Assembly: GCA_964393745.1 (NCBI GenBank)
Contig: CAYMVA010000013.1
Span: forward strand, 46,250-110,249
DNA: 64,000 bases
Direction of reading: 5' to 3'
DNA from: an uncultured Enterobacteriaceae bacterium
GTDB taxonomy: Bacteria > Pseudomonadota > Gammaproteobacteria > Burkholderiales > SG8-39
Position numbers and translations under genes: made by a program. Below, piece after piece: positions 24,650-47,103 of the stretch. The notes beneath the pieces are model-generated. The model was not told where the DNA came from. It saw only the letters and a list, made by a program, of their open reading frames with translations, and searched no databases. Every line of letters starts with the position of its first letter. The first letter of the stretch is position 1.

Positions 24650-27094
24650 GTGAGTAAATGGGTCACCGGATTTCGGCTTGCTTTAGCCGCGCTGCTCTTT
24701 GTGCCGCTGCTCGCGCATGCCGCCGGACTGGGCAGGCTGACGGTGCAGTCCGCCTTGGGCCAGCCGCTCGCGGCCGAGATCGAGATCGTCTCGCTGCAAC
24801 CGGGCGAGGACGATAGCCTGAATGCGCGGCTCGCTTCGCAGGAAGCGTTCCGCCAGGCTGGAATCGAGATGAGTTCCGCGCTCATAGGCGTGCGCTTCGC
24901 AATCGAGCGCCGCGCCGGGCGGCCAGTGATCCGCGTCAGCACCCTGCAGGCGGTGAACGAGCCGTTTCTCGATCTGCTGGTGGAATTGCAATGGGCTACT
25001 GGCCGGCTGGTGCGGGAATACACGTTCCTGCTCGACCCGCCCGAGTACAAGGGACCGCAGCCGATCGCGGCGGCGCCCGCGCCCGCGGCGAAACCGGCGC
25101 CCGCAGTTGAGGCGGTGAAGCCGGCGCCAAGCGTCGAAGCGAGACCGATTACGCCTGCGCCGTCGGCAGCGGCGCCGGCTGGCTCGTACGAAGTGAAAAA
25201 GGGCGACACCCTCGGCGCGATCGCGCGGGACAACCGGCCGGCTGGCGTCACCTTCAACCAGATGCTGATCGCGCTGTACCGCGCGAACCAATCGGCATTC
25301 ATCCGTGAAAACATCAACCTGGTTCGCGCCGGGCGCATCCTGACGATTCCGGACCGCAGCGCCATCGAGGCCGTGGATGTGGCGGAGGCCAACCGCCTAG
25401 TGCAAACGCATCACGCGGAATTCGCCGAGTACCGGCGGCAGCTCGGCATGGCGGTTGCGGCAGCGCCGGCGGCGCCAGCGCCGCGCGAGCGCGAGGTCGC
25501 TGGCCGCATCACCGCCAAGCCCGGCGCGCCTGCGCCGGCTGAGTCGAAGGACCAGCTGAAACTGTCTCGCGCCGACGTTGCCCCCGCGACTGCGGCCGGG
25601 CGTGCTGCGCGCGAAGACGACCGCATCGCGCGAGAGCGGGCGCTGAAGGATGCGCAGTCGCGCGCCACCGATCTGGAAAAGAACGTCACCGACCTGCAAA
25701 AGCTGGTGGAGCTGAAAAACCAGCAACTGGCGGAACTCGAGAAGAAGGCGGGAGCCAAGCCCGCTCCAGAGGCGCCCAAGCCTGCTCCAGAAGCACCCAA
25801 GCCCGCGGCAGAGGCGCCCAAGCCGGCGCCGGAAGCAGCCAAGGCACCGGAGGCAGCGAAGCCTGCGGCTGAAGCGCCGAAGCCGGCTGTCGCAGCGGCC
25901 AAGCCCAAGCCGAGGCCTGCGGCACCTCCGCCGCCGCCTCCGCCAAGCTTGGTGGACGAGTTCCTCGACAACCCGGTCGCTCTGGGCGGGCTCGGCGGCG
26001 TGGTGGTGCTGCTGGCTGGCTACGGCATCTGGGCATGGCGGCGCCGGAAAGGGTCGGCGACCAAGTTCCAGGACAGCGTGCTCACCGGCCAGGGCGCCGG
26101 ACCTGCCGCAGGCGCCGCAGTTGGCCCTGTTGCAGCCGCCGGTGCCGCCGCGACCTCGGTAGCCTCGGTCAGCCAGACTGCCGTCGGCGGGGGGAGCGAA
26201 GAAGTCGATCCGATCGCCGAGGCGGACGTTTACATGGCGTACGGGCGCGATGCCCAGGCCGAGGAAATCCTGAAAGAGGCCCTAGCCAAGGACGCCAATC
26301 GCGTGCCGGTGCACGTAAAGCTGCTCGAGATCTACGCCAACCGGCGCGACAAGCGGGGCTTCGAGCAGACCGCGCTCAAGGTGAAGAACCTGACCCATGG
26401 CACCGGGCCGGAGTGGGAGAAGGCTGCCGCTCTGGGCCGCACCGTCGATCCCGGCAGCGGTCTGTATGGCGGGGCGCCCGACGCCACACAGGCGATCGCG
26501 CCAAAGGCGATCGCACAGAGCGCCGCTGCGCCTACGATCGACATCGACATCACGGGCGGCGGACTGGCGCGCACCGCGACGGCGCCGGCGAGCACCGCGG
26601 CAGGGCTCGATTTCGACCTCGGCGCGACCACGCCCGGGATGCCCAAGCCGAAGAGCGATTTCACGGCCGAAGGCACGCTCATCATGGACAGGCCGTCGGG
26701 TTCCGCCGAAGTGCCGGCGCTCGACTTCAATCTGGGCGATACCACCACCCTCAAGACCGACACACTGCCGACTAGAGCCGCCTCGCCGTCCGCCGGTAGC
26801 GGCTCGATCGACTTCGACCTGAACATCGATCTGGGCGGCGCGCAACCGGCACTGGCTGCGGATGCGCCCCTCGACCTCGGTGCGCTGAACCTCGATCTGG
26901 GCGCGCCCGCGGGCGGCGGGCCGGCGGCGTCCGATCCCAAGTGGCAGGAGGTGGCGACCAAGCTCGACCTCGCCAAGGCCTACGAAGAGATGGGCGACAA
27001 GGATGGCGCGCGCGAGTTGCTCAACGAAGTGCTCAGGGAAGGCGACGCCGCGCAGAAGGGTCAGGCCAAGCAGATGCTCTCCAACCTGCGCTAG
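24650..27094 (+). CDS. fimV: FimV-like peptidoglycan-binding protein (FimV N-domain, LysM, coiled coil, TM, FimV C-terminal TPR-like motif)
   Basis: LGRLTVQSALGQPL.AEIEI...LLDPPEY, LysM (YEVKKGDTLGAIAR), and a C-terminal KLDLAKAYEEMGDKDGARELLNEVL. asd-fimV-truA synteny. GTG 24650 after AGGGTGG is preferred; ATG 24602 is possible. Confidence 0.85.
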   Translation: MSKWVTGFRLALAALLFVPLLAHAAGLGRLTVQSALGQPLAAEIEIVSLQPGEDDSLNARLASQEAFRQAGIEMSSALIGVRFAIERRAGRPVIRVSTLQAVNEPFLDLLVELQWATGRLVREYTFLLDPPEYKGPQPIAAAPAPAAKPAPAVEAVKPAPSVEARPITPAPSAAAPAGSYEVKKGDTLGAIARDNRPAGVTFNQMLIALYRANQSAFIRENINLVRAGRILTIPDRSAIEAVDVAEANRLVQTHHAEFAEYRRQLGMAVAAAPAAPAPREREVAGRITAKPGAPAPAESKDQLKLSRADVAPATAAGRAAREDDRIARERALKDAQSRATDLEKNVTDLQKLVELKNQQLAELEKKAGAKPAPEAPKPAPEAPKPAAEAPKPAPEAAKAPEAAKPAAEAPKPAVAAAKPKPRPAAPPPPPPPSLVDEFLDNPVALGGLGGVVVLLAGYGIWAWRRRKGSATKFQDSVLTGQGAGPAAGAAVGPVAAAGAAATSVASVSQTAVGGGSEEVDPIAEADVYMAYGRDAQAEEILKEALAKDANRVPVHVKLLEIYANRRDKRGFEQTALKVKNLTHGTGPEWEKAAALGRTVDPGSGLYGGAPDATQAIAPKAIAQSAAAPTIDIDITGGGLARTATAPASTAAGLDFDLGATTPGMPKPKSDFTAEGTLIMDRPSGSAEVPALDFNLGDTTTLKTDTLPTRAASPSAGSGSIDFDLNIDLGGAQPALAADAPLDLGALNLDLGAPAGGGPAASDPKWQEVATKLDLAKAYEEMGDKDGARELLNEVLREGDAAQKGQAKQMLSNLR
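25755..25910 (+). repeat. In-frame ~15-nt tandem repeats encoding (A/P)KPAPEA units inside fimV
   Basis: Direct reading: APKPAPEAPKPAPEAPKPAAEAPKPAPEAAKAPEAAKPAAEAPKPA. Confidence 0.8.
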
Positions 27095-31467: not shown

Positions 31468-32747
31468 GCGGGCGCACGCTCGGCGCGTGGCTAGACCACG
31501 TCGAGCGCCAGCACCCCAAGGAAATCGCCCTCGGGCTGGAGCGCGTCGGCGAAGTGCTGGCGCGCCTGGGCGTGTCGCCGGCTTGCCCGGTGATCACCGT
31601 CGGCGGCACCAATGGCAAAGGCTCCGCCTGCGCGATGCTGGAGAGCATCCTGCGTGCGGCCGGCTATCGCGCCGGGCTCTACAGCTCGCCGCACCTGCTG
31701 CGCTACAACGAGCGCGTGCGCATCGCCGGGCGCGAGGCCGACGATGCGGCGCTGTGCGAGGCCTTTCAAGCGGTGGAGAGTGCGCGCGGCCAGGTGCCAC
31801 TCACCTATTTCGAGTTCGGCACCCTCGCCGCGGCGTGGCTGTTCGCGCGCGAGCGCCTCGACGCGCTGGTGCTGGAGGTCGGCCTCGGTGGGCGGCTCGA
31901 CGCAGTGAACGCGATCGAGCCCGACTGCGCGCTGCTCACCAGCGTGGGCGTGGACCATGTTGGGTACCTTGGCGCCACGCGCGAAGAAATCGGCCGCGAG
32001 AAGGCGGGCATCTTCCGCGCCGGCAAGCCGGCGGTGGTCGCCGAGCCCGAGCCGCCCGCGAGCGTTCTCGAGGAAGCGGCGAGGGTCGGCGCGAAGTTGC
32101 TGCTGGTGGGGCGCGACTTCGGCTTTCGCGCCGAAGCCGGGCAGTGGTCCTGCTGGGGACCGGGCGGCAAGCGCGCCGGGCTGGCGTATCCGGCACTGCG
32201 CGGCGCCATCCAGTTGCGCAACGCGAGCGCCGTGATCGTCGCGCTGGATGCGCTGCGCGAGCGCCTTCCAGTGGGCATGCAGGAAGTGCGGCGCGGGCTG
32301 GCCGAGGTGAACCTGCCGGGCCGCTTCCAGGTATTGCCGGGCCGGCCTCAGGTCGTGCTCGACGTCGCGCACAACCCGCAAGCGGCGGCGGTGCTGGCGG
32401 CGAACCTGCAGGCGAGCGGCTTTGCGCCGCAAACTATCGCGGTGCTGGGCATGCTGGCGGACAAGGACATCGGTGGCGTGGTGAGTGCGGTCGCGCCGCG
32501 CATCACGCGTTGGCACCTTGCGACGCTGGGCGGATCGCGCGGCGCGAGCGCGCACCAGCTTGCGGCGGCGCTTGTGGCGTGCGGCGTGAGCGCGCCGGCG
32601 ACCGAGCACGCCTCCGTCGCGCGAGCGCTTGCTGCAGCGCAGGGTGAAGCAGGTGAGGGTGATAAAATCATCGTCTTTGGATCATTCCTCACGGTAGCCG
32701 AAGCGATGGCTCAACTCCAGGCGCAACGACGCCCCGGGCATGGCTGA
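31464..32747 (+). CDS. folC: Bifunctional folylpolyglutamate synthase / dihydrofolate synthase
   Basis: GTG overlaps the accD stop. [10 protein letters not shown]-loop-like motif. accD-folC synteny. Confidence 0.9.
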
Positions 32748-33420
32748 AGCGCGCGACGTCGAAGCGCTCAAGCGCCGCGGCCGGCGCCGGCTCGTGGGCG
32801 CGATCGCGCTGGTGCTCGCTGCGGTCATCGTCCTGCCGATGGTGTTCGACTCGGCGCCGAAACAGGCTCCGCCGCCGGTGAGCGTTCGCATTCCCTCCGA
32901 GGACGACGCCGGATTCAAGCCGAAGGTCACGCCGACTGTGCCTGCGCAGCCGCCCGTGGCAGCCAAGCCGGCGGCACCCGCTCCCGCGCCAGTCGCGCCG
33001 GAGAAAGCGGAAACTAAGGCGTCAGAGGTTGCGCCTGCGAAGCCCGCCGCGCCCGAGCCTGCCAAGCCGATCGTGAAGCGGGCGCCCGAAAAGCCCGCCG
33101 CGCCCGAGCCCGCCAAGCCGATCGTGAAGCCGGCGCCCGAAAAGCCCGCCGCGGCGGCTGAGGAAAAAGCGCGCGCCCAAAGCGCGCTCGCGGGCGAGCA
33201 GTATTACGTCCAGGTGGGCGCGTTCGCCGAACCCAGCGGCGTGCTCGAGAAGCTCAAGGCGGCGAAGATTCCCTACTACACCGAGCCGGTCGCCACCAAG
33301 GCGGGCAAGGTGTTGCGCGTGCGCGCGGGCCCGTTTGCGAGCCGCGAAGCGGCACAGAAGGCCCTGGAGCAGCTCAAAGGCCTGGGCTTAAAGCCGGCCG
33401 ACGTCGCGGCCAAGTCCTAG
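32740..33420 (+). CDS. SPOR-domain cell-division protein (DedD-like)
   Basis: N-terminal TM, a Pro/Ala/Lys-rich linker, and a C-terminal SPOR domain (YYVQVGAF...RVRAGPFASREAA). The stop TAG (33418-33420) is partly supplied by the adjacent repeat element. Confidence 0.85.
   Translation: MAEARDVEALKRRGRRRLVGAIALVLAAVIVLPMVFDSAPKQAPPPVSVRIPSEDDAGFKPKVTPTVPAQPPVAAKPAAPAPAPVAPEKAETKASEVAPAKPAAPEPAKPIVKRAPEKPAAPEPAKPIVKPAPEKPAAAAEEKARAQSALAGEQYYVQVGAFAEPSGVLEKLKAAKIPYYTEPVATKAGKVLRVRAGPFASREAAQKALEQLKGLGLKPADVAAKS
33040..33154 (+). repeat. 51-nt in-frame tandem duplication (about 2.2 copies) in the SPOR protein linker
   Basis: KPAAPEPAKPIVK(R/P)APE is repeated, and the DNA units are near-identical. 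Confidence 0.85.
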
Positions 33421-33846
33421 GGAAGCTCTGAGCAAGTTCCGCGTGCGCGACGGTGGCGATTTTCGTGCAGGGCGAGCCAGCGGACGCCGCCGTGTGCTTG
33501 ACGCCCACAAGGCGGCCGATGGCGATGGCATGCGCGAACGCGCAGGCGCTTGCGCCTGCGCTCCTCGCGCTTTAGCGCGACCGAGGGGCGCGCAGCGGCA
33601 AAGCCGCTGCTCAGCGCCCCGTCCCTTTGGGCGGCGAGGCCGGCCGCAAAGGTTCAAGGCAAAAGCCCTCGCCGCCCTCGGGTTGCGACCGGAAGTCGCG
33701 TAACCGGGGGTACGATAGCGCGATGACACGGGCGCCTGCGTTGTTGCTCGACCTTGCGATATCGACATATCGCTGCAGTCGAGCGCCTAGCAGGCGCCGC
33801 GTTCCGGCCGCAACGCGCATGCGCGCAACTTGCTCAGAGCTTCCCT
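33419..33846 (+). mobile_element. MITE-like structured intergenic element, copy 1 (428 bp, perfect 20-bp TIR AGGGAAGCTCTGAGCAAGTT)
   Basis: The termini are exact reverse complements. The interior is homologous to 41483-41839 (inverted). It has multiple nested GC hairpins and no credible ORF. Confidence 0.8.
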
Positions 33847-33847
33847 G

Positions 33848-34339
33848 ATGACCTGGCTCGATTACGCCGTGTTCGGCGTGTTCTCGTTTTCCGTCCTCTG
33901 GGGCGCATGGCGCGGATTGGTGCGCGAAGTCATCTCGGTGCTGGGCTGGGTGATCGCGTTCCTCGCCGCCAATCTGTTCGCGGGTCCGCTTGGCGAGGCG
34001 CTGCCGCTATCCATCCCGACCCCCGAACTGCGGGTGCTGGCGGCCTTCCTCGGCATTTTCGTAGGCGTGCTGATCGTCTCGACGCTGCTGGCGCTGCTCC
34101 TGTCCAGGCTGATACAGGCGGTGGGGCTTGGCGGACTCAATAGCCTGCTGGGAGGGTTGTTCGGCGTCGCCAGGGGCGTGCTGATCGTGCTGGCCGTGGC
34201 GTTGCTCGCCGGGCTGACGAGCGCCCCGAAACAGGCGTTCTGGCGCGACTCCGCGGCCGGCGCGGGCATGGCGCGCGCCGCGCTCGCGCTCAAGCCGTGG
34301 CTGCCGCATACGCTTACCGAGCGGCTGCGCTATGATTGA
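33848..34339 (+). CDS. cvpA: Colicin V production / membrane integrity protein CvpA
   Basis: MTWLDYAVFGVFSFSVLWGAWRGLVREV.S resembles the E. coli CvpA N-terminus. dedD-cvpA-purF synteny. Confidence 0.88.
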   Translation: MTWLDYAVFGVFSFSVLWGAWRGLVREVISVLGWVIAFLAANLFAGPLGEALPLSIPTPELRVLAAFLGIFVGVLIVSTLLALLLSRLIQAVGLGGLNSLLGGLFGVARGVLIVLAVALLAGLTSAPKQAFWRDSAAGAGMARAALALKPWLPHTLTERLRYD

Positions 34340-36019: not shown

Positions 36020-37189
36020 ATGAAAAATTCGCTTGCCACGCTGGGGGTGCGCGCCGGACAGGCCCGCACCGAGTTCCACGAGCACTCCGAGGCGCTGTTC
36101 CTCACCTCGAGCTTCGTGTTCGACAACGCCGCGCAGGCCGCGGCGCGCTTCACCGGCGGCGAGGACGGCTTCGTCTACTCGCGCTTCACCAATCCCACGG
36201 TCGCCATGTTCCAGGACCGGCTCGCGGCGCTGGAAGGGGCGGAGGCCTGCGTCGCCACCGCCTCGGGGATGTCGGCGATCCTCGCCGTGAACATGGCGCT
36301 GCTCAAGTCGGGCGACCATGTGGTTTGTTCGAATGCCGTGTTCGGCGCCACGGTGCAGCTGTATTCAGGGATCCTGGCGCGCTTCGGCATCCAGACCACG
36401 TTCGTTTCCCCGACCGAGATTGGCGACTGGCAGCGGGCGCTGAAACCGAACACCCGGCTGCTTTTTCTGGAGACGCCGTCCAATCCGCTTGGCGTGGTCT
36501 CTGACATCGCGGCGATCGCCGCCGTGGCGAAGAATGCTGGCGCGCTGCTCGCGGTGGACAACGCGCTGTGCACCCCGGCGCTGCAGCGGCCGCTCGAATT
36601 CGGCGCCGACCTGGTGATCCATTCCGCGACCAAGTACCTGGACGGGCAGGGCAGGGTGCTCGGCGGCGCGGTGCTCGGCTCCAAGGCGCTGGTGATGGAC
36701 GGCGTGTTCGGCTTCCTGCGCACTGCGGGGCCGACGCTGTCGGCGTTCAACGCCTGGGTGATCCTGAAGGGCATGGAGACCCTCGAACTCCGCATGTTGG
36801 CGCAATCGGAGCGCGCGCTGGAGTTGGCGCGCTGGCTGGAGGCGCATCCCAAGGTAGCGCGCGTGTTCTATCCCGGCCTGGCATCGCACCCGCAGCACGC
36901 GCTCGCCATGCGCCAGCAGCGCGCCGGCGGCGCGATCGTGTCGTTCGAGGTGCAGGGCGGGCGCGAGGCGGCGTGGAAAGTGGTCGACTCGACGCAACTG
37001 ATCTCGATCACCGGCAACCTCGGCGACGTCAAGACCACCATCACCCATCCGGCCACCACCACCCACGGGCGCATCACGCCCGAGGCGCGCGCCGCGGCCG
37101 GGATTGGCGATGGTCTGCTGCGCGTCGCGGTCGGCCTGGAAGCGGTCGAGGACGTGAAAGCCGACTTGGCGCGGGGGCTGGGCGAATAG
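36020..37189 (+). CDS. metZ: O-succinylhomoserine sulfhydrylase (Cys/Met PLP-dependent family)
   Basis: SRFTNPTV...HSATKYLDGQGR (PLP Lys). ATG 36020 follows AAGGATGGGG; ATG 36011 is an alternative. Confidence 0.88.
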   Translation: MKNSLATLGVRAGQARTEFHEHSEALFLTSSFVFDNAAQAAARFTGGEDGFVYSRFTNPTVAMFQDRLAALEGAEACVATASGMSAILAVNMALLKSGDHVVCSNAVFGATVQLYSGILARFGIQTTFVSPTEIGDWQRALKPNTRLLFLETPSNPLGVVSDIAAIAAVAKNAGALLAVDNALCTPALQRPLEFGADLVIHSATKYLDGQGRVLGGAVLGSKALVMDGVFGFLRTAGPTLSAFNAWVILKGMETLELRMLAQSERALELARWLEAHPKVARVFYPGLASHPQHALAMRQQRAGGAIVSFEVQGGREAAWKVVDSTQLISITGNLGDVKTTITHPATTTHGRITPEARAAAGIGDGLLRVAVGLEAVEDVKADLARGLGE

Positions 37190-37250
37190 AGCCGGGCTGG
37201 AAGGGCCGAAGTGTAAAGTCACGCTTTACACTCTGCCGCGGCGCGCCTGA
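37174..37250 (+). repeat. Copy A of the triplicated metZ-stop/hairpin region
   Basis: GGGCTGGGCGAATAG-AGCCGGGCTGGAAGGGCCGAAGTGTAAAG-TCACG-CTTTACACT. It carries the authentic metZ 3' end and is homologous to 39127-39216 and 40686-40776. Confidence 0.85.
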
Positions 37251-37336
37251 ATTCGCTCGCGAACTCAGGCGCAAAGAAATCGGGCACCGTTTGCAGCGAC
37301 AGGCTCTAAATCAAACTGCTGCTAAAACGGGACTCA

Positions 37337-39126: not shown

Positions 39127-39216
39127 CGCTGCGCAGGTAACGCACGGGCTGGCAGGGCAAAAGTGTAAAGTCTGTCTTTACACTTCGCCGAACTGCACCA
39201 GTCGCACCGCAGCGCA
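39127..39216 (+). repeat. Copy B of the triplicated region (degenerate metZ end + hairpin + degenerate lpxH 3' end)
   Basis: CTGCGCAGGTAA..CGGGCTGGCAGGGCAAAAGTGTAAAG-TCTGT-CTTTACACTTCGCCGAACTGCACCAGTCGCACC. The reverse strand reads a pseudo VQFGEV* identical to the lpxH C-terminus. Confidence 0.85.
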
Positions 39217-40215: not shown

Positions 40216-40671
40216 ATGCGGCTGCTTGCAGTCCGCTTGGCTGTGGTCGCAGCGGCTGGTGCCGTTAGCTGCACCTCGAGCGCATCGGGATTAGACCAGC
40301 CTCGGCAGGGTGAGTCGCGCCCAAGCCGCGTGACCGGCTACGCAAGTCTCGCGGCCTACTTGCGTGCCGCGGGCGCAAGCGTCAAGCCGGGAGGGGAAGT
40401 CGATCAGCCATTCTTCCCCGTCACCGGAAAGATGCTCCAAGTCCACGGCGAGGATGTGCAGGTCTTCGAGTTCGCAGCTGCCGCAGTGGCGGATGCGCAG
40501 GCCGCCCGGATCTCGCCGACTGGCGGCACGGTAGGGACGACGAACGTCCATTGGATCGGCTCGCCGCATTTTTACAAGGCGGGAAAACTCCTCGTGCTGT
40601 ACGTGGGAGACAACGACAAGGTGCTGCAAGCACTCGCCGCCGCGCTCGGCCGGCAGTTCGCCGGCAGGTAG
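40216..40671 (+). CDS. Small lipoprotein of unknown function (island cargo 2)
   Basis: Lipobox AAGAVSC. 151 aa. Conserved-looking C-terminal half (VQVFEF...ISP.GG.VGTT.V.W...PHFYK.G.L.VLYVG.ND). Confidence 0.65.
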   Translation: MRLLAVRLAVVAAAGAVSCTSSASGLDQPRQGESRPSRVTGYASLAAYLRAAGASVKPGGEVDQPFFPVTGKMLQVHGEDVQVFEFAAAAVADAQAARISPTGGTVGTTNVHWIGSPHFYKAGKLLVLYVGDNDKVLQALAAALGRQFAGR

Positions 40672-40685
40672 CTGACCTCGGTCTA

Positions 40686-40776
40686 GGGCTGCGCGGGTAG
40701 ACCCGGGCTGGCAGGGCCAAAGTGTAAAGTCAGACTTTACACTTCGCCGAATTGCACCATGCGCACCACGTCGCGC
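40686..40776 (+). repeat. Copy C of the triplicated region (degenerate metZ end + hairpin + authentic lpxH 3' end)
   Basis: GGGCTGCGCGGGTAG-ACCCGGGCTGGCAGGGCCAAAGTGTAAAG-TCAGA-CTTTACACTTCGCCGAATTGCACC. The lpxH stop codon lies in the hairpin arm. Confidence 0.85.
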
Positions 40777-41480
40777 TCGACCGCGAGGTAGCCGCCGCGA
40801 TCGTACCAGTCCGGCAGCACCCAGCGCTCGCAGGCTTTGCCGTCCACCCTGTGCTGGTGGTGCGCCGGGCGGTGGGTGTGGCCGTGGATGAGGCGCGTCA
40901 CGCCCAGCCTGCGGAACGCCTCGCACACCGCGCCCACGTTGGCGTCCATGATCTCGGGCGCTTTGGCGCGTACCGCGGCCTTGCTCTGCTCGCGGTAGCC
41001 GAGCACCGCGACGCGGCGCTGGTCGCGCGGCTTGGCGAGGAACTCCTGCTGCCAGGCCGCCGAGCGGGCGATGTGGCGCCATGCCTGGTAAGGCAAATCG
41101 TCGGTGCACAGCGTGTCGCCGTGCAGCAGCGCGAAGCGCTCGCCATCCAGCTCGGCGACGGCGGGATCGTCGAGCAGCTGCGCGCCGGCGGCGGCGCAAA
41201 AGCGCTCGCCGATGAGGAAGTCGCGGTTGCCGTGCATCAGGCGCAGCGCAACGCCGGCCTCGGAGAGCTGCCGCAGCCCTTGCGCCACTTGCCGCCCAAG
41301 CGGGTCGCCGGGAACGTCCTCCAGTTCGTCGTCGCCGATCCAGTATTCGAACAGGTCGCCCAGGATGTAGAGCGCCTGCGCGTCGCGCGCCTCGTGGCGC
41401 AGGAAACGGATGAACTGCTCGCTGGCCTGCGGGCGCTCCCCTGAAAGGTGCAGGTCGGAGATGAACAGCGCCCGGCTCAC
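40737..41480 (-). CDS. lpxH: UDP-2,3-diacylglucosamine diphosphatase
   Basis: SDLHL...LYILGDLFE.WIGDD...HGNRDFL...HGDTLCTDD...IHGHTHRP metallophosphoesterase motifs match LpxH. GTG start at 41480. Confidence 0.92.
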   Translation of the reverse strand: MSRALFISDLHLSGERPQASEQFIRFLRHEARDAQALYILGDLFEYWIGDDELEDVPGDPLGRQVAQGLRQLSEAGVALRLMHGNRDFLIGERFCAAAGAQLLDDPAVAELDGERFALLHGDTLCTDDLPYQAWRHIARSAAWQQEFLAKPRDQRRVAVLGYREQSKAAVRAKAPEIMDANVGAVCEAFRRLGVTRLIHGHTHRPAHHQHRVDGKACERWVLPDWYDRGGYLAVERDVVRMVQFGEV

Positions 41481-41482
41481 CC

Positions 41483-41839
41483 AGGGACCCTCTGATCAAT
41501 TCACGCGCATGCGCGTTGCGGCCGGAACGCGGCGCCTGCTAGGCGCGAGGCCGCAGCGATATGTCGATATCGCAAGGCCGAGCAACAACGCAGGCGCCCG
41601 TGTAGCCGCGATGACCGTCGCCCGAGATACCGACTTCCGGCCGCAACCCGGGGGCGGCGAGGGCCTCTGTCTTGCACTCCTGCGGCACGGCCTCGCCGCC
41701 CAGAGGGACGGGGCGAGTTTTCGCGCATGGCATCGCCATCGGCCGCCTTGTGGACGTCAAGTACACGGCGGCGTCCGCTGGCTCGCCCTGCACGAAAATC
41801 GCCGCCGTCGCGCACGCGGGAATTGATCAGAGGGTCCCT
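41483..41839 (-). mobile_element. MITE-like structured intergenic element, copy 2 (357 bp, perfect 20-bp TIR AGGGACCCTCTGATCAATTC)
   Basis: Inverted homolog of 33419-33846. It fills the ppiA-stop to lpxH-start spacer, leaving 2 nt on each side. Confidence 0.8.
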
Positions 41840-41841
41840 AG

Positions 41842-42423
41842 TTACTTGGCGTCGACCACGCTCATGGATTCGATCACTACCGCCTCGCGCGGCACGTCGC
41901 TGCGGAACGGGCCGCCCGCGCCGGTCGGCATTTTGGCGATCTTCGTCACCACGTCCATCCCCGATACCACTTTGCCGAACACCGCGTAGCCCCAGCCGTC
42001 CTGCGCCGCGGCGGCGTTCAGGAAATCGTTGTTCTTGCCGTTGATGAAGAACTGCGCGCTCGCCGAGTGCGGCGCGCTGGTGCGCGCCATGGCGACGGTG
42101 CCGAGGTCGTTCTTGAGGCCGTTCTTGGCCTCGTTCTCGACCGGCGGGCGCGTCGGCTTCTGGTTGAACTTCGGGTCGAAGCCGCCGCCCTGGATCATGA
42201 AGCCGTCGATGACGCGATGGAACACGGTGCCGCTGTAATGGCCGTCCTTCACGTACTGCAGAAAGTTGTCGACGGTTTTCGGCGCTTTGGCCGGATAGAG
42301 CTCCAGCCGGATGGTGCCGGCATTGGTTTTCACGTCCACCTGCGGATCGGCGGCCGCCGCGCCGGGCGCGGCCGCGGCCGCGGAAAGCACTACCAGGGAC
42401 TTGCAGAAATCAGCGAGCTTCAT
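41842..42423 (-). CDS. ppiA: Periplasmic cyclophilin-type peptidyl-prolyl cis-trans isomerase
   Basis: Signal peptide plus FHRVIDGFMIQGGGF...WGYAVFGKV cyclophilin motifs. Confidence 0.92.
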   Translation of the reverse strand: MKLADFCKSLVVLSAAAAAPGAAAADPQVDVKTNAGTIRLELYPAKAPKTVDNFLQYVKDGHYSGTVFHRVIDGFMIQGGGFDPKFNQKPTRPPVENEAKNGLKNDLGTVAMARTSAPHSASAQFFINGKNNDFLNAAAAQDGWGYAVFGKVVSGMDVVTKIAKMPTGAGGPFRSDVPREAVVIESMSVVDAK

Positions 42424-44730: not shown

Positions 44731-47103
44731 TTATGCGAGGCTTGCGAGGATCTGCTTCGCCTGCGCCTGCTGCGCAGCATCGCCTTCCTGGAGGACCTCG
44801 TTCAGGAGTTCCCGGGCGCCGTCGTTGTCGCCCATCTCCTGGTAGGCAATGGCAACGTCGAGTTTGACCGCGACGTCCTGCCATTTCTTGTCGCGACCGC
44901 CCGCACTCTTGGCAGCGGACTTGACCTCGTCCAGATCCAAGCTGATCGTGGAAAGATCCATTTCGCTCGCCGAGGGTGCCGCGGCTTTCGTCACCACGGG
45001 CGTCTCGCCCGTCGTTCCGCCGAGGTCGAAGTCCAGTATCGAATCGGCCGACGCCGGCGCCGCTGCAGGCGCCGGGGACTGCCTTGGGGCGGGTTCCATC
45101 ATCGTGTCGAGATCGAAGTCGACTTTGGGCAACTCGGCCGAGTCGGCTGCAGCCGCCACTTCGGCGCCTTCACCCTGACCGTACAGCGCATTGCGCGGGT
45201 CGATCGACCGGCCAAGCGCCAGCGCCTTGTCCCACTCCGGCCCTTCGCTGTTCACCAGACCCTTCAGCTTGCGTGCCTCGGCTTCGAACTTCTGCGTCTC
45301 TTGCCGCTTGGCGTAAATCTGAAGCAGTTTGAGGTAAACGACTGGCCGGGCCTCGCCCTCCTGGAGCGCCTTGCGCAGGATTTCCTCGGCCTGTCCGTCG
45401 CGTCCGTAGGCCATGTAAACATCCGCCTCCGCAAGCGGGTCGATCTCTTCGGCGGCCGCCGCAGCGGCGGCGCTTCTCATGTCGACCGCTGCGGCAACGC
45501 CCGGGTCCGACACGGTCGCCACTGGCATGGCCGGCGGCCTGGCGCCGAGCTGCGCGAGCGCCGCGCGCTTCTTCTGCCGCCACGCATAAGCCCCGTATCC
45601 GGCGAGCAACAGCAGCACCACTCCGAGCCCACCTAGCATGACCGGGTCTTCGAGGTACTCCTCGAGCAGGCTCCGCTCCGGCGCGGGCGGCGGCGGTGCC
45701 GGTCGCGGCTTTGCCGCCGGCTTCGGTCCAGGCGCGGGCTTGGGAGCCTCAACTGCGGGCCTGGGGGTCTCAATTGCGGGCTTGGGCGCTTCGACCGCGG
45801 GTTTCGCGACCGGCGCCACCGCCGGCGCGGGCGGCGTTTCTGCAGCGCGCCTTTCCAGCGCGGCAATCTGCAGATTCCTGATCTCGACCAGCTTCGCGAG
45901 ATCCGCGGCGCTCTTCTCGAGTTCATTGATACGAGATTGCACGTCCTTCATGGCGCGCGCGTGCGCCTCGCGATCGTCAGCGCTCGCCGCAGCCGCAACC
46001 TCCGGCTTTCTGGCTTCGGCGCCCGCGAGCTTCACGCGCGCCTTTGGAGCGGCAGGCGCTGCTGGGTCGCCCTGCGACCTGATCCTCCCCTCCGCGATAC
46101 GCCTGCCCTCGCTGCGGGGTGGGGGCGGCGCAGTGGGCTGGGCAACGGGTGGGGCGACGGGCGGAGCAGCCGAAGGCGGCGGTGCCGCAGCCGCCGGCGC
46201 CGTCGGGGCCATCACTGCGACGGCGGGTGCACGCGGGACATCGGTCGGTGGGTCGAGCAGGACGGTGTATTCGCGCACCAGGCGCCCGGATTTCGACTCC
46301 AGCTCGATCAGTATCTTGAGGAACGGCTCGTTCACCGGACGGTCCGTCGTCACTGCGATGAACGGTTTGCCGTCGCGCCGCTGAATCGACATGTTGACGC
46401 CGTTCAGCGCGGCAATGAATTCGATTCCAGCCTGCCGGTAGGCGTCGGGCGAGGCGAGGCGCACCGCCAGAATCCCCTGCTCGCCGGGCTTAAGCGCCCC
46501 GACCTCGACTTCAGCTCGCAAGGGCTGGCCGAGCGAGGACCGCACGTGAAGAGTTCCCAGGGCCGTGGAAACGCCGGATTCTGCGGCAGGCGCGGTTGGA
46601 ACCGCCGCGCCGGCATCTGGCGCAACTGAATCGACCCGTTCTTCGACGATCAGCCAGCGTTCCCCATCCCGGATGAATTCAAGCGTCTTGTTGGTCTCGT
46701 CCTGATACCTGTCCGAGCGGTAGCGCTGGCGAAAGGATGCCGCAGCCCTGGCGTCGTCGCGCCGCAGAACCTTGAGGTCGCTGGTGGATACCTCGATGAA
46801 GCGCGGCGCCGTGATACGCGCGAGGCGCTGCTTCTCCCATGCGGCGCGCGCCTGGCCGCCAGGCGGCTTGAACGCCGGCGCGTAGAAGGCGAGGTAGCGC
46901 TCCGCATCCTTTGCCGACCACGCCTGCGCCCACGCAGCGACGCTCTCCAGAATCGCAGCGTCCGGGGCCGTGTGTGTCGCGGCCGCTGCCGTCGATGGCG
47001 CCCCCAGCCACAGCGCGCACAGCGCCGCGGCAACGCCTGGCTTCAATGCGCGCGGCAGCGCGGCGAAAAAGTGCTGTGCTAGACTTTTTATGCTTTTGGG
47101 CAC
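44731..47103 (-). CDS. Second FimV-like protein (paralog; N-terminal accessory module instead of LysM)
   Basis: FimV N-domain (LGTLHVRSSLGQPLRAEVEV...LLDPPT), coiled coil, TM, and FimV C-motif (KLDVAIAYQEMGDNDGARELLNEVL). The N-terminus has AWAQAWSAKDAERYLAFYAPAF... Confidence 0.8.
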   Translation of the reverse strand: MPKSIKSLAQHFFAALPRALKPGVAAALCALWLGAPSTAAAATHTAPDAAILESVAAWAQAWSAKDAERYLAFYAPAFKPPGGQARAAWEKQRLARITAPRFIEVSTSDLKVLRRDDARAAASFRQRYRSDRYQDETNKTLEFIRDGERWLIVEERVDSVAPDAGAAVPTAPAAESGVSTALGTLHVRSSLGQPLRAEVEVGALKPGEQGILAVRLASPDAYRQAGIEFIAALNGVNMSIQRRDGKPFIAVTTDRPVNEPFLKILIELESKSGRLVREYTVLLDPPTDVPRAPAVAVMAPTAPAAAAPPPSAAPPVAPPVAQPTAPPPPRSEGRRIAEGRIRSQGDPAAPAAPKARVKLAGAEARKPEVAAAASADDREAHARAMKDVQSRINELEKSAADLAKLVEIRNLQIAALERRAAETPPAPAVAPVAKPAVEAPKPAIETPRPAVEAPKPAPGPKPAAKPRPAPPPPAPERSLLEEYLEDPVMLGGLGVVLLLLAGYGAYAWRQKKRAALAQLGARPPAMPVATVSDPGVAAAVDMRSAAAAAAAEEIDPLAEADVYMAYGRDGQAEEILRKALQEGEARPVVYLKLLQIYAKRQETQKFEAEARKLKGLVNSEGPEWDKALALGRSIDPRNALYGQGEGAEVAAAADSAELPKVDFDLDTMMEPAPRQSPAPAAAPASADSILDFDLGGTTGETPVVTKAAAPSASEMDLSTISLDLDEVKSAAKSAGGRDKKWQDVAVKLDVAIAYQEMGDNDGARELLNEVLQEGDAAQQAQAKQILASLA

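Follow-up and report, generated by a model that had tools for sequence, protein, structure and literature searches.

The 428-bp insert that separates a dedD-like gene from cvpA in the window (the whole stretch of 64,000 nucleotides analyzed here) is a mobile element and not an ancestral spacer, and very probably it is a nonautonomous transposon (MITE) with ends of the IS5 family. It is short and noncoding, it has terminal inverted repeats and a target duplication, and it occurs as dispersed copies with insertion polymorphism, as MITEs do. The family is undescribed yet represents a standard kind of element; its spread to at least 50 sites in related uncultured Burkholderiales is an ordinary finding, and what is known of MITEs remains unchanged in kind. 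The result matters for annotation, as dozens of operon junctions in one uncultured lineage of Burkholderiales are occupied by a repeat of ~355 or ~425 nt that gene callers mistake for arginine-rich hypothetical proteins.

Two copies of the element in the window

The insert ends in a perfect 20-bp terminal inverted repeat, with AGGGAAGCTCTGAGCAAGTT at positions 33419 to 33438 and its exact reverse complement at 33827 to 33846; shuffles of the window gave no match to this repeat pair. Both arms had been recorded in a previous reading made from the sequence alone (the sequence-only reading), together with a further pairing inside them. This pairing was found as CGCGTGCGCG with CGCGCATGCGCG, and it extends the terminal repeats to a helix of ~31 bp with a duplex energy of -59 kcal/mol. 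The three-tier hairpin described in the same reading is likewise present in the minimum-energy fold. The limits that suit the element best are GGG...CCC, flanked by TA and TG (Table 1). With folC upstream and purF downstream of the dedD-cvpA pair, the TAG stop codon of the SPOR/DedD-like gene occupies 33418 to 33420, and the ATG of cvpA occupies 33848 to 33850, 1 base past the repeat.

A second copy, suspected near 41483 to 41839, was confirmed, on the minus strand. The stop codon of the isomerase gene is at 41842 to 41844 and the GTG of the lpxH-like gene is at 41480; the flanks are TA (41839 to 41840) and TG (41482 to 41483). Both copies have the same orientation relative to their own neighbor genes, and their alignment shows that a hairpin block of ~70 nt in copy 1 is missing from copy 2.

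Table 1. Features of the two element copies and their surroundings in the window
Feature	Position	Strand	Basis or context
SPOR-domain (DedD-like) gene	32740..33420	+	ORF list; PF05036 SPOR in orthologs of relatives
Left target dinucleotide, TA	33418..33419	+	TA at the 5' flank in 55/71 family copies
Copy 1 (probable MITE), long form, 426 nt, GGGAAGC...GCTTCCC	33420..33845	+	
5' terminal inverted repeat, IS5-type	33420..33438	+	Pairs with 33827-33845
Optional module of ~70 nt, GC-rich hairpins	33540..33612	+	Alignments of copies
Three-tier hairpin, almost invariant across the family	33731..33798	+	Fold and helices 13-16
3' terminal inverted repeat	33827..33845	+	
Right target dinucleotide, now TG	33846..33847	+	3' flank: TA in 59/71 copies, TG in 6/71
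cvpA (PF02674), start immediately after the element	33848..34339	+	
Copy 2 (probable MITE), short form, 355 nt	41484..41838	-	Junction of the peptidyl-prolyl isomerase gene and the lpxH-like gene

The orthologous junctions are empty

The dedD-cvpA junction was empty in every orthologous locus examined, namely, in nine contigs from four relative lineages with CvpA identities of 58 to 91%. One of them, L040 from the MAG MFD10007, holds the orthologs of both window neighborhoods, and neither junction contains the element: the dedD-cvpA junction reads TCCTGACATGAC and the isomerase-lpxH junction measures 13 nt, a family copy lying instead directly 3' of lpxH. The eight other contigs (L083 to L090) were found through CvpA homologs with identities of 82 to 91%. 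Their junction is TCGTGACATG in L083 (CvpA identity, 91%), GTCTGATATG in L086 to L090, and ATCGTGACC, an overlap, in L084 and L085, so the relatives have junctions of the TGA-N-ATG type or a GTGA overlap. Three more filled/empty pairs at other loci showed a single CTAG, or diverged sequence, at the empty site. When metagenomes were scanned for the exact predicted empty-site sequence, nothing matched. The CvpA and PurF proteins of the window had no identical record either, which places its genome outside the collections used. We also considered a preexisting palindrome that the element might have entered and rejected it, since the empty sites hold only CTAG.

Given its extreme predicted structure, the insert could have been a conserved ancestral regulatory spacer, or a structured noncoding RNA gene, of the folC-dedD-cvpA-purF operon. 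However, this explanation is already refuted by the empty site in all relatives, the same sequence is carried with target duplications by ~70 unrelated sites, and Rfam has no match for it, leaving it next to no probability. The sequence-only reading had proposed a MITE-like element in the tight stop/start junction of cotranscribed genes and had named two observations that would speak against it: the same 0.43 kb conserved in relatives without terminal repeats, and no copies beyond the one at 41483 to 41839. The orthologous junctions proved empty and ~70 further copies lie at different loci, which bears out the proposal.

A family of dispersed copies in two main size forms

Five metagenome loci with complete copies emerged from a protein search that used a spurious ORF of the element as the query, and an invariant 22-mer derived from these copies was scanned against a species-representative genome collection. 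It matched 73 stretches, and a single long-read MAG, the uncultured betaproteobacterium MFD10007.bin.2.212, accounts for ~50. Matches came from four other MAGs, of which two are named Burkholderiales, one is an uncultured beta proteobacterium, and one is labeled Enterobacteriaceae; two matches in Poribacteria, inside a gene, were discarded as chance. The Enterobacteriaceae label belongs to CAZVHU01 ([quoted passage not shown]), whose loci L029 and L062 contain a GC-rich MITE of the Burkholderiales type in a 386-nt form. It looks as if this label is wrong or the bin is mixed.

We delimited 71 copies, whose lengths cluster at ~355 and ~425 nt; a few measure 384 to 386 nt. The long form contains the hairpin module of ~70 nt and the short form does not. 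At two pairs of orthologous sites (L033/L028 and L015/L035), one MAG has the short form (356 nt) and the other MAG has the long form (424 nt); thus, either resident copies gain and lose the module or copies convert each other. The terminal inverted repeats measure 19 to 20 bp, are perfect in both window copies, and are free of mismatches in 33 of 66 family copies. Shortened derivatives comprise one 125-nt copy, in which an internal deletion has spared both ends and the TA flanks (L043 4050-4176), plus solo ends of ~58 nt fused to adjoining gene ends (L049 4188-4244 and L070 574-630).

The only ORFs inside the element are arginine-rich frames that are interrupted by 1- to 2-nt indels between copies, and Pfam has no domain on record for those called within it. 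A coding role was rejected, as the frame differs between copies. Such frames are annotated as spurious "hypothetical proteins" in L001 (3364-3588), L003 (5001-5279), L004 (4601-4894), and L005 (1266-1616). The whole element had no match in a plasmid collection, and a literature search did not find its sequence strings in a microbial context.

The ends of the element are of the IS5 type

The sequence-only reading did not recognize the terminal repeat as that of a named IS family; end comparisons place it in the IS5 family. With a one-base offset, the commonest A-type end, GGGAAGCTCTGAACAAGTCC, is identical at 17 of 20 positions to the right end of E. coli IS5, GGAAGGTGCGAACAAGTCCC. The left end of an autonomous 1,168-bp IS from a metagenome (L099:1333-2500) agrees with that of the MITE over 21 of 21 nt. 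The best matches to the end in the plasmid collection precede, by 55 to 70 bp, genes annotated as IS5-family transposases; they belong to ISs of 1,163 to 1,200 bp from Achromobacter xylosoxidans pA81 (19 of 20 positions identical), Pseudomonas syringae, and Xanthomonas citri, each of which has TA at its left flank (as CTA or TTA) and TAG at its right flank. A metagenome scan with a degenerate end matched more than 120 loci, including autonomous IS5-family elements.

The element has the terminal repeat GG(G)AAGSTCTGAACAAGTCC in common with E. coli IS5, the 1,200-bp IS of pA81, and L099:1333-2500, and it shares with this group insertion at YTAR/CTAG with the flanks cTA-GGG...CCC-TAg. It differs from the group in having no transposase gene, in its length (355 to 426 nt versus ~1.2 kb), and in its unrelated interior; moreover, its arms are far more perfectly complementary, whereas autonomous ends show 2 to 4 mismatches in 18.

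In agreement with the sequence-only reading, no transposase was found nearby: tblastn with IS5 InsH detected none in the 64 kb of the window or in related loci totaling 630 kb, and the matching autonomous IS occurred in an unrelated metagenome contig. Extra matches to the terminal repeat in L038 and L058, where an autonomous partner was sought, had only ordinary genes around them. Because no transposase lies nearby, we infer that the element is mobilized in trans by an IS5-type transposase. A DDE transposase of this type, encoded elsewhere, would insert it at YTAR, mostly CTAG, and duplicate at least the central TA. The insertion part of this explanation is largely shown. A cognate IS5-family transposase gene would be expected to have the flanks GGGAAGCTCTGAACAAGTC or GGGAGCCTCTGATCTATTC.

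The IS5-type end was also seen on other noncoding metagenome elements (L124 9216, L120 2341, L195 3414, and L210 513; L122 2100 and L176 918). Among them are a related MITE family, which has a similar subterminal block (GTCCCGCGTGGCCGCGACGGAGGC...), and perfect palindromic mini-MITEs of 43 to 56 nt.

Insertion at TA/CTAG and the rebuilding of stop codons

TA flanks the element on both sides in 47 of the 71 copies, against a background of 1.1% (counts for each side are in Table 1), and the next outer bases are C in 51 copies and G in 59. The inferred targets are CTAG in 43 copies, ATAG in 10, CTAA in 6, and TTAG in 3. In the two window copies, which read TA...TG, the duplication is imperfect, the right-hand copy having become TG. 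A target-site duplication, not visible in the sequence-only reading, exists at the level of the family. Duplications of 2 and 4 bp look alike here because the termini of the element are G...C. The data lean toward a duplication of TA only, because the inner G and C are conserved at ~98%, whereas the outer C and G (72 to 83%) are conserved less than TA itself.

Transposons of the IS630/Tc1-mariner type also insert at CTAG or TA and duplicate the TA, with a preference for CTAG in IS630. A MITE of this type would account for the TA pairs and would suit the better fit of a 2-bp duplication, but the ends, in a comparison made with those of the IS5 family, match beside IS5 transposase genes in three plasmids and in one metagenome IS. 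In addition, CTAG is preferred by IS5 itself, whose target duplication is Py-T-A-Pu, mostly CTAG, a tetranucleotide rare in bacteria (PMC5493358), and the inferred targets follow this rule; we consider an IS630/Tc1-mariner origin improbable. The GC-rich hairpin build and the gain and loss of hairpin modules are reminiscent of REP/BIME-type or IS200/IS605-derived palindromes mobilized by a tyrosine (HUH) transposase. To our knowledge, however, HUH-mobilized elements have neither terminal inverted repeats nor a target duplication. The element has long terminal inverted repeats, a TA/CTAG duplication, and ends that match the IS5 family, making such an origin extremely unlikely.

The family loci have a G+C content of 69%. 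In a genome of about this composition, TA and CTAG are scarce and lie mainly at TAG and TAA stop codons; surviving insertions therefore accumulate where genes end and in stop/start junctions. The left TA and the first G of the element always rebuild a TAG stop. We found that TA plus the G of the element forms the stop codon of the adjacent gene in 28 of 45 cases at the 5' end and in 10 of 17 at the 3' end, and six further genes read on to a TGA within the repeat (CTCTGA). The downstream gene starts within 20 nt of the element in 25 of 36 cases, typically with the junctions TAGTG, TAGATG, or TGATG, or with TAG followed by GGAGG. The family offers a clean example of how the choice of CTAG/TA targets in a GC-rich genome steers a transposon into stop codons and rebuilds them.

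According to this scheme, copy 1 entered the TA of the stop codon of the dedD-like gene, and copy 2 entered a CTAG in the isomerase-lpxH junction, where the inferred target is TAAC-TA-GGTG. The insert had been said to supply the AG of the dedD stop codon. The TAG does lie at its edge, but the TA is the target and the element contributes only the G; the stop codon appears to be supplied because insertion into its TA, plus the terminal G, rebuilds TAG. Excision of 33419 to 33846 indeed yields TCCTGATGACC with the TGATG that had been predicted. However, TGATG is probably not the ancestral junction, given the TGA-N-ATG and GTGA arrangements of the relatives. Under the TA/YTAR rule, the most economical preinsertion junction would be TCC-TAATG-ACC, with CTAA as the target and one later A>G change needed in the right-hand TA.

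Orientation relative to genes

Between codirectional genes, 23 copies are in the sense orientation and 3 are antisense (5 with the JGI gene calls for L003 and L004; P of ~1e-4). In 45 cases a gene is directed into the 5' end of the element and in 17 into the 3' end; genes lead away from the 3' end in 37 cases and from the 5' end in 12 (P = 5e-4 for both contrasts). The ends of the element are symmetric. An internal promoter or terminator was rejected as the cause of this bias, consensus sites being absent. Because no promoter or intrinsic-terminator consensus was found in it, the element probably forms part of the operon transcript.

Fold of the element and covariation of its arms

Copy 1 folds with a predicted energy of -271 kcal/mol, compared to -211 ± 6 kcal/mol for its shuffles (z = -9.5), and copy 2 folds with -232 kcal/mol (z = -10.2). 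Rfam gave no match at the gathering score and only chance-level ones in a permissive search (E of up to 10). In the terminal helix, both sides have changed in 15 of 23 pairs and 98.1% of the cells are paired; all five measures of covariation exceeded 500 of 500 shuffles and every slid control. Between copies, the arms diverge by 22% versus 8.9% for the interior, and the two arms of a copy differ by just 0.74 mismatches per 19 bp. The arm type varies independently of the interior markers and the 70-nt module, and no copy has mixed arm types. Guide-like or target-matched arms were looked for in the per-copy listing, where no relation between arm and flank was visible by eye. Candidate causes of the matched arms are selection on a folded single strand, correction by template switching, or old arm lineages whose interiors have been homogenized by gene conversion.

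Besides being mobile, the element might also be kept for a working RNA, either because the helix recouples translation of the two cistrons or because it provides a processing site for RNase III. Selection on such an RNA would explain the matched arms together with the orientation bias, and it would fit the extent of the covariation beyond all controls and the contrast between divergent arms among copies and paired arms within each. Nevertheless, template-switch correction of imperfect inverted repeats at the DNA level gives the same pattern (PMC7202029), and any one mismatch in a helix of 31 bp would be under very weak host selection. The co-orientation with genes and the closeness of downstream starts also point to an RNA role, as does the energy of the helix (-59 to -65 kcal/mol with the stop codon included), but copies are found between convergent and divergent genes too. 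The ratio of G-U to A-C mismatches in the terminal helix is 22:14, with G-U not significantly favored, and sense and antisense folding differ by 1.8 of 228 kcal/mol, for which reason we rejected strand asymmetry as a sign of a functional RNA strand. Neither measure gives proof of selection at the RNA level. We regard an RNA function as rather unlikely, with some precedent in other repeats.

Correia elements (nemis) of Neisseria resemble the element as high-copy MITEs with a TA duplication that are often cotranscribed between genes, and in their RNA the terminal repeats pair into a long double-stranded helix that RNase III cleaves (PMC10969869). They are 100 to 160 bp long, AT-rich, and from another lineage, whereas the element measures 355 to 426 nt, has a G+C content of ~70%, and has a multibranched interior. 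ERIC in Enterobacteriaceae and bcr1 in the Bacillus cereus group are likewise intergenic repeats that are transcribed and that affect mRNA according to their orientation, and in bcr1 compensatory changes preserve the fold (PMC3184786). The element, known here from its sequence, differs from both in sequence, size, duplication, and host.

If transcribed, the element RNA would close as a multihairpin body sealed by the ~31-bp helix, with the dedD stop codon on one strand and the other strand ending 1 nt short of the AUG of cvpA. Ribosomes that terminate at the TAG would have to melt this helix, which would expose the cvpA start region and keep the translation of the two genes coupled across 0.43 kb; alternatively, RNase III might cut the terminal helix, as in Correia elements. 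It is conceivable, though unlikely, that the family has been shaped to be "operon compatible" in this manner, the paired helix placing the stop codon of the upstream gene beside the start codon of the downstream one so that coupling, or a defined RNase III cut, survives a 0.4-kb insertion. If true, this would account for both the covarying arms and the co-orientation with genes of at least 4:1, and the transposon would possess its own device for neutralizing polar effects. The covarying arms and the orientation bias make the family a usable system for setting RNA-level selection against DNA template switching in MITE stems.

Other repeats in the window

A repeat of 70 to 80 nt with the hairpin AAGTGTAAAGTC-N4-CTTTACACTT occurs in three copies (37159-37263, 39145-39215, and 40670-40774), and the two that were checked start at or just before a gene stop codon (37189 and 40671). 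It appears to represent another family of small repeats in this part of the window. A 21-nt tandem repeat lies at 25755 to 25898. Finally, 24951-27087 and 44738-46337 share a long inverted similarity of 75 to 80%, and both include coding repeats rich in Pro, Ala, and Lys; they are probably paralogous genes in opposite orientation.
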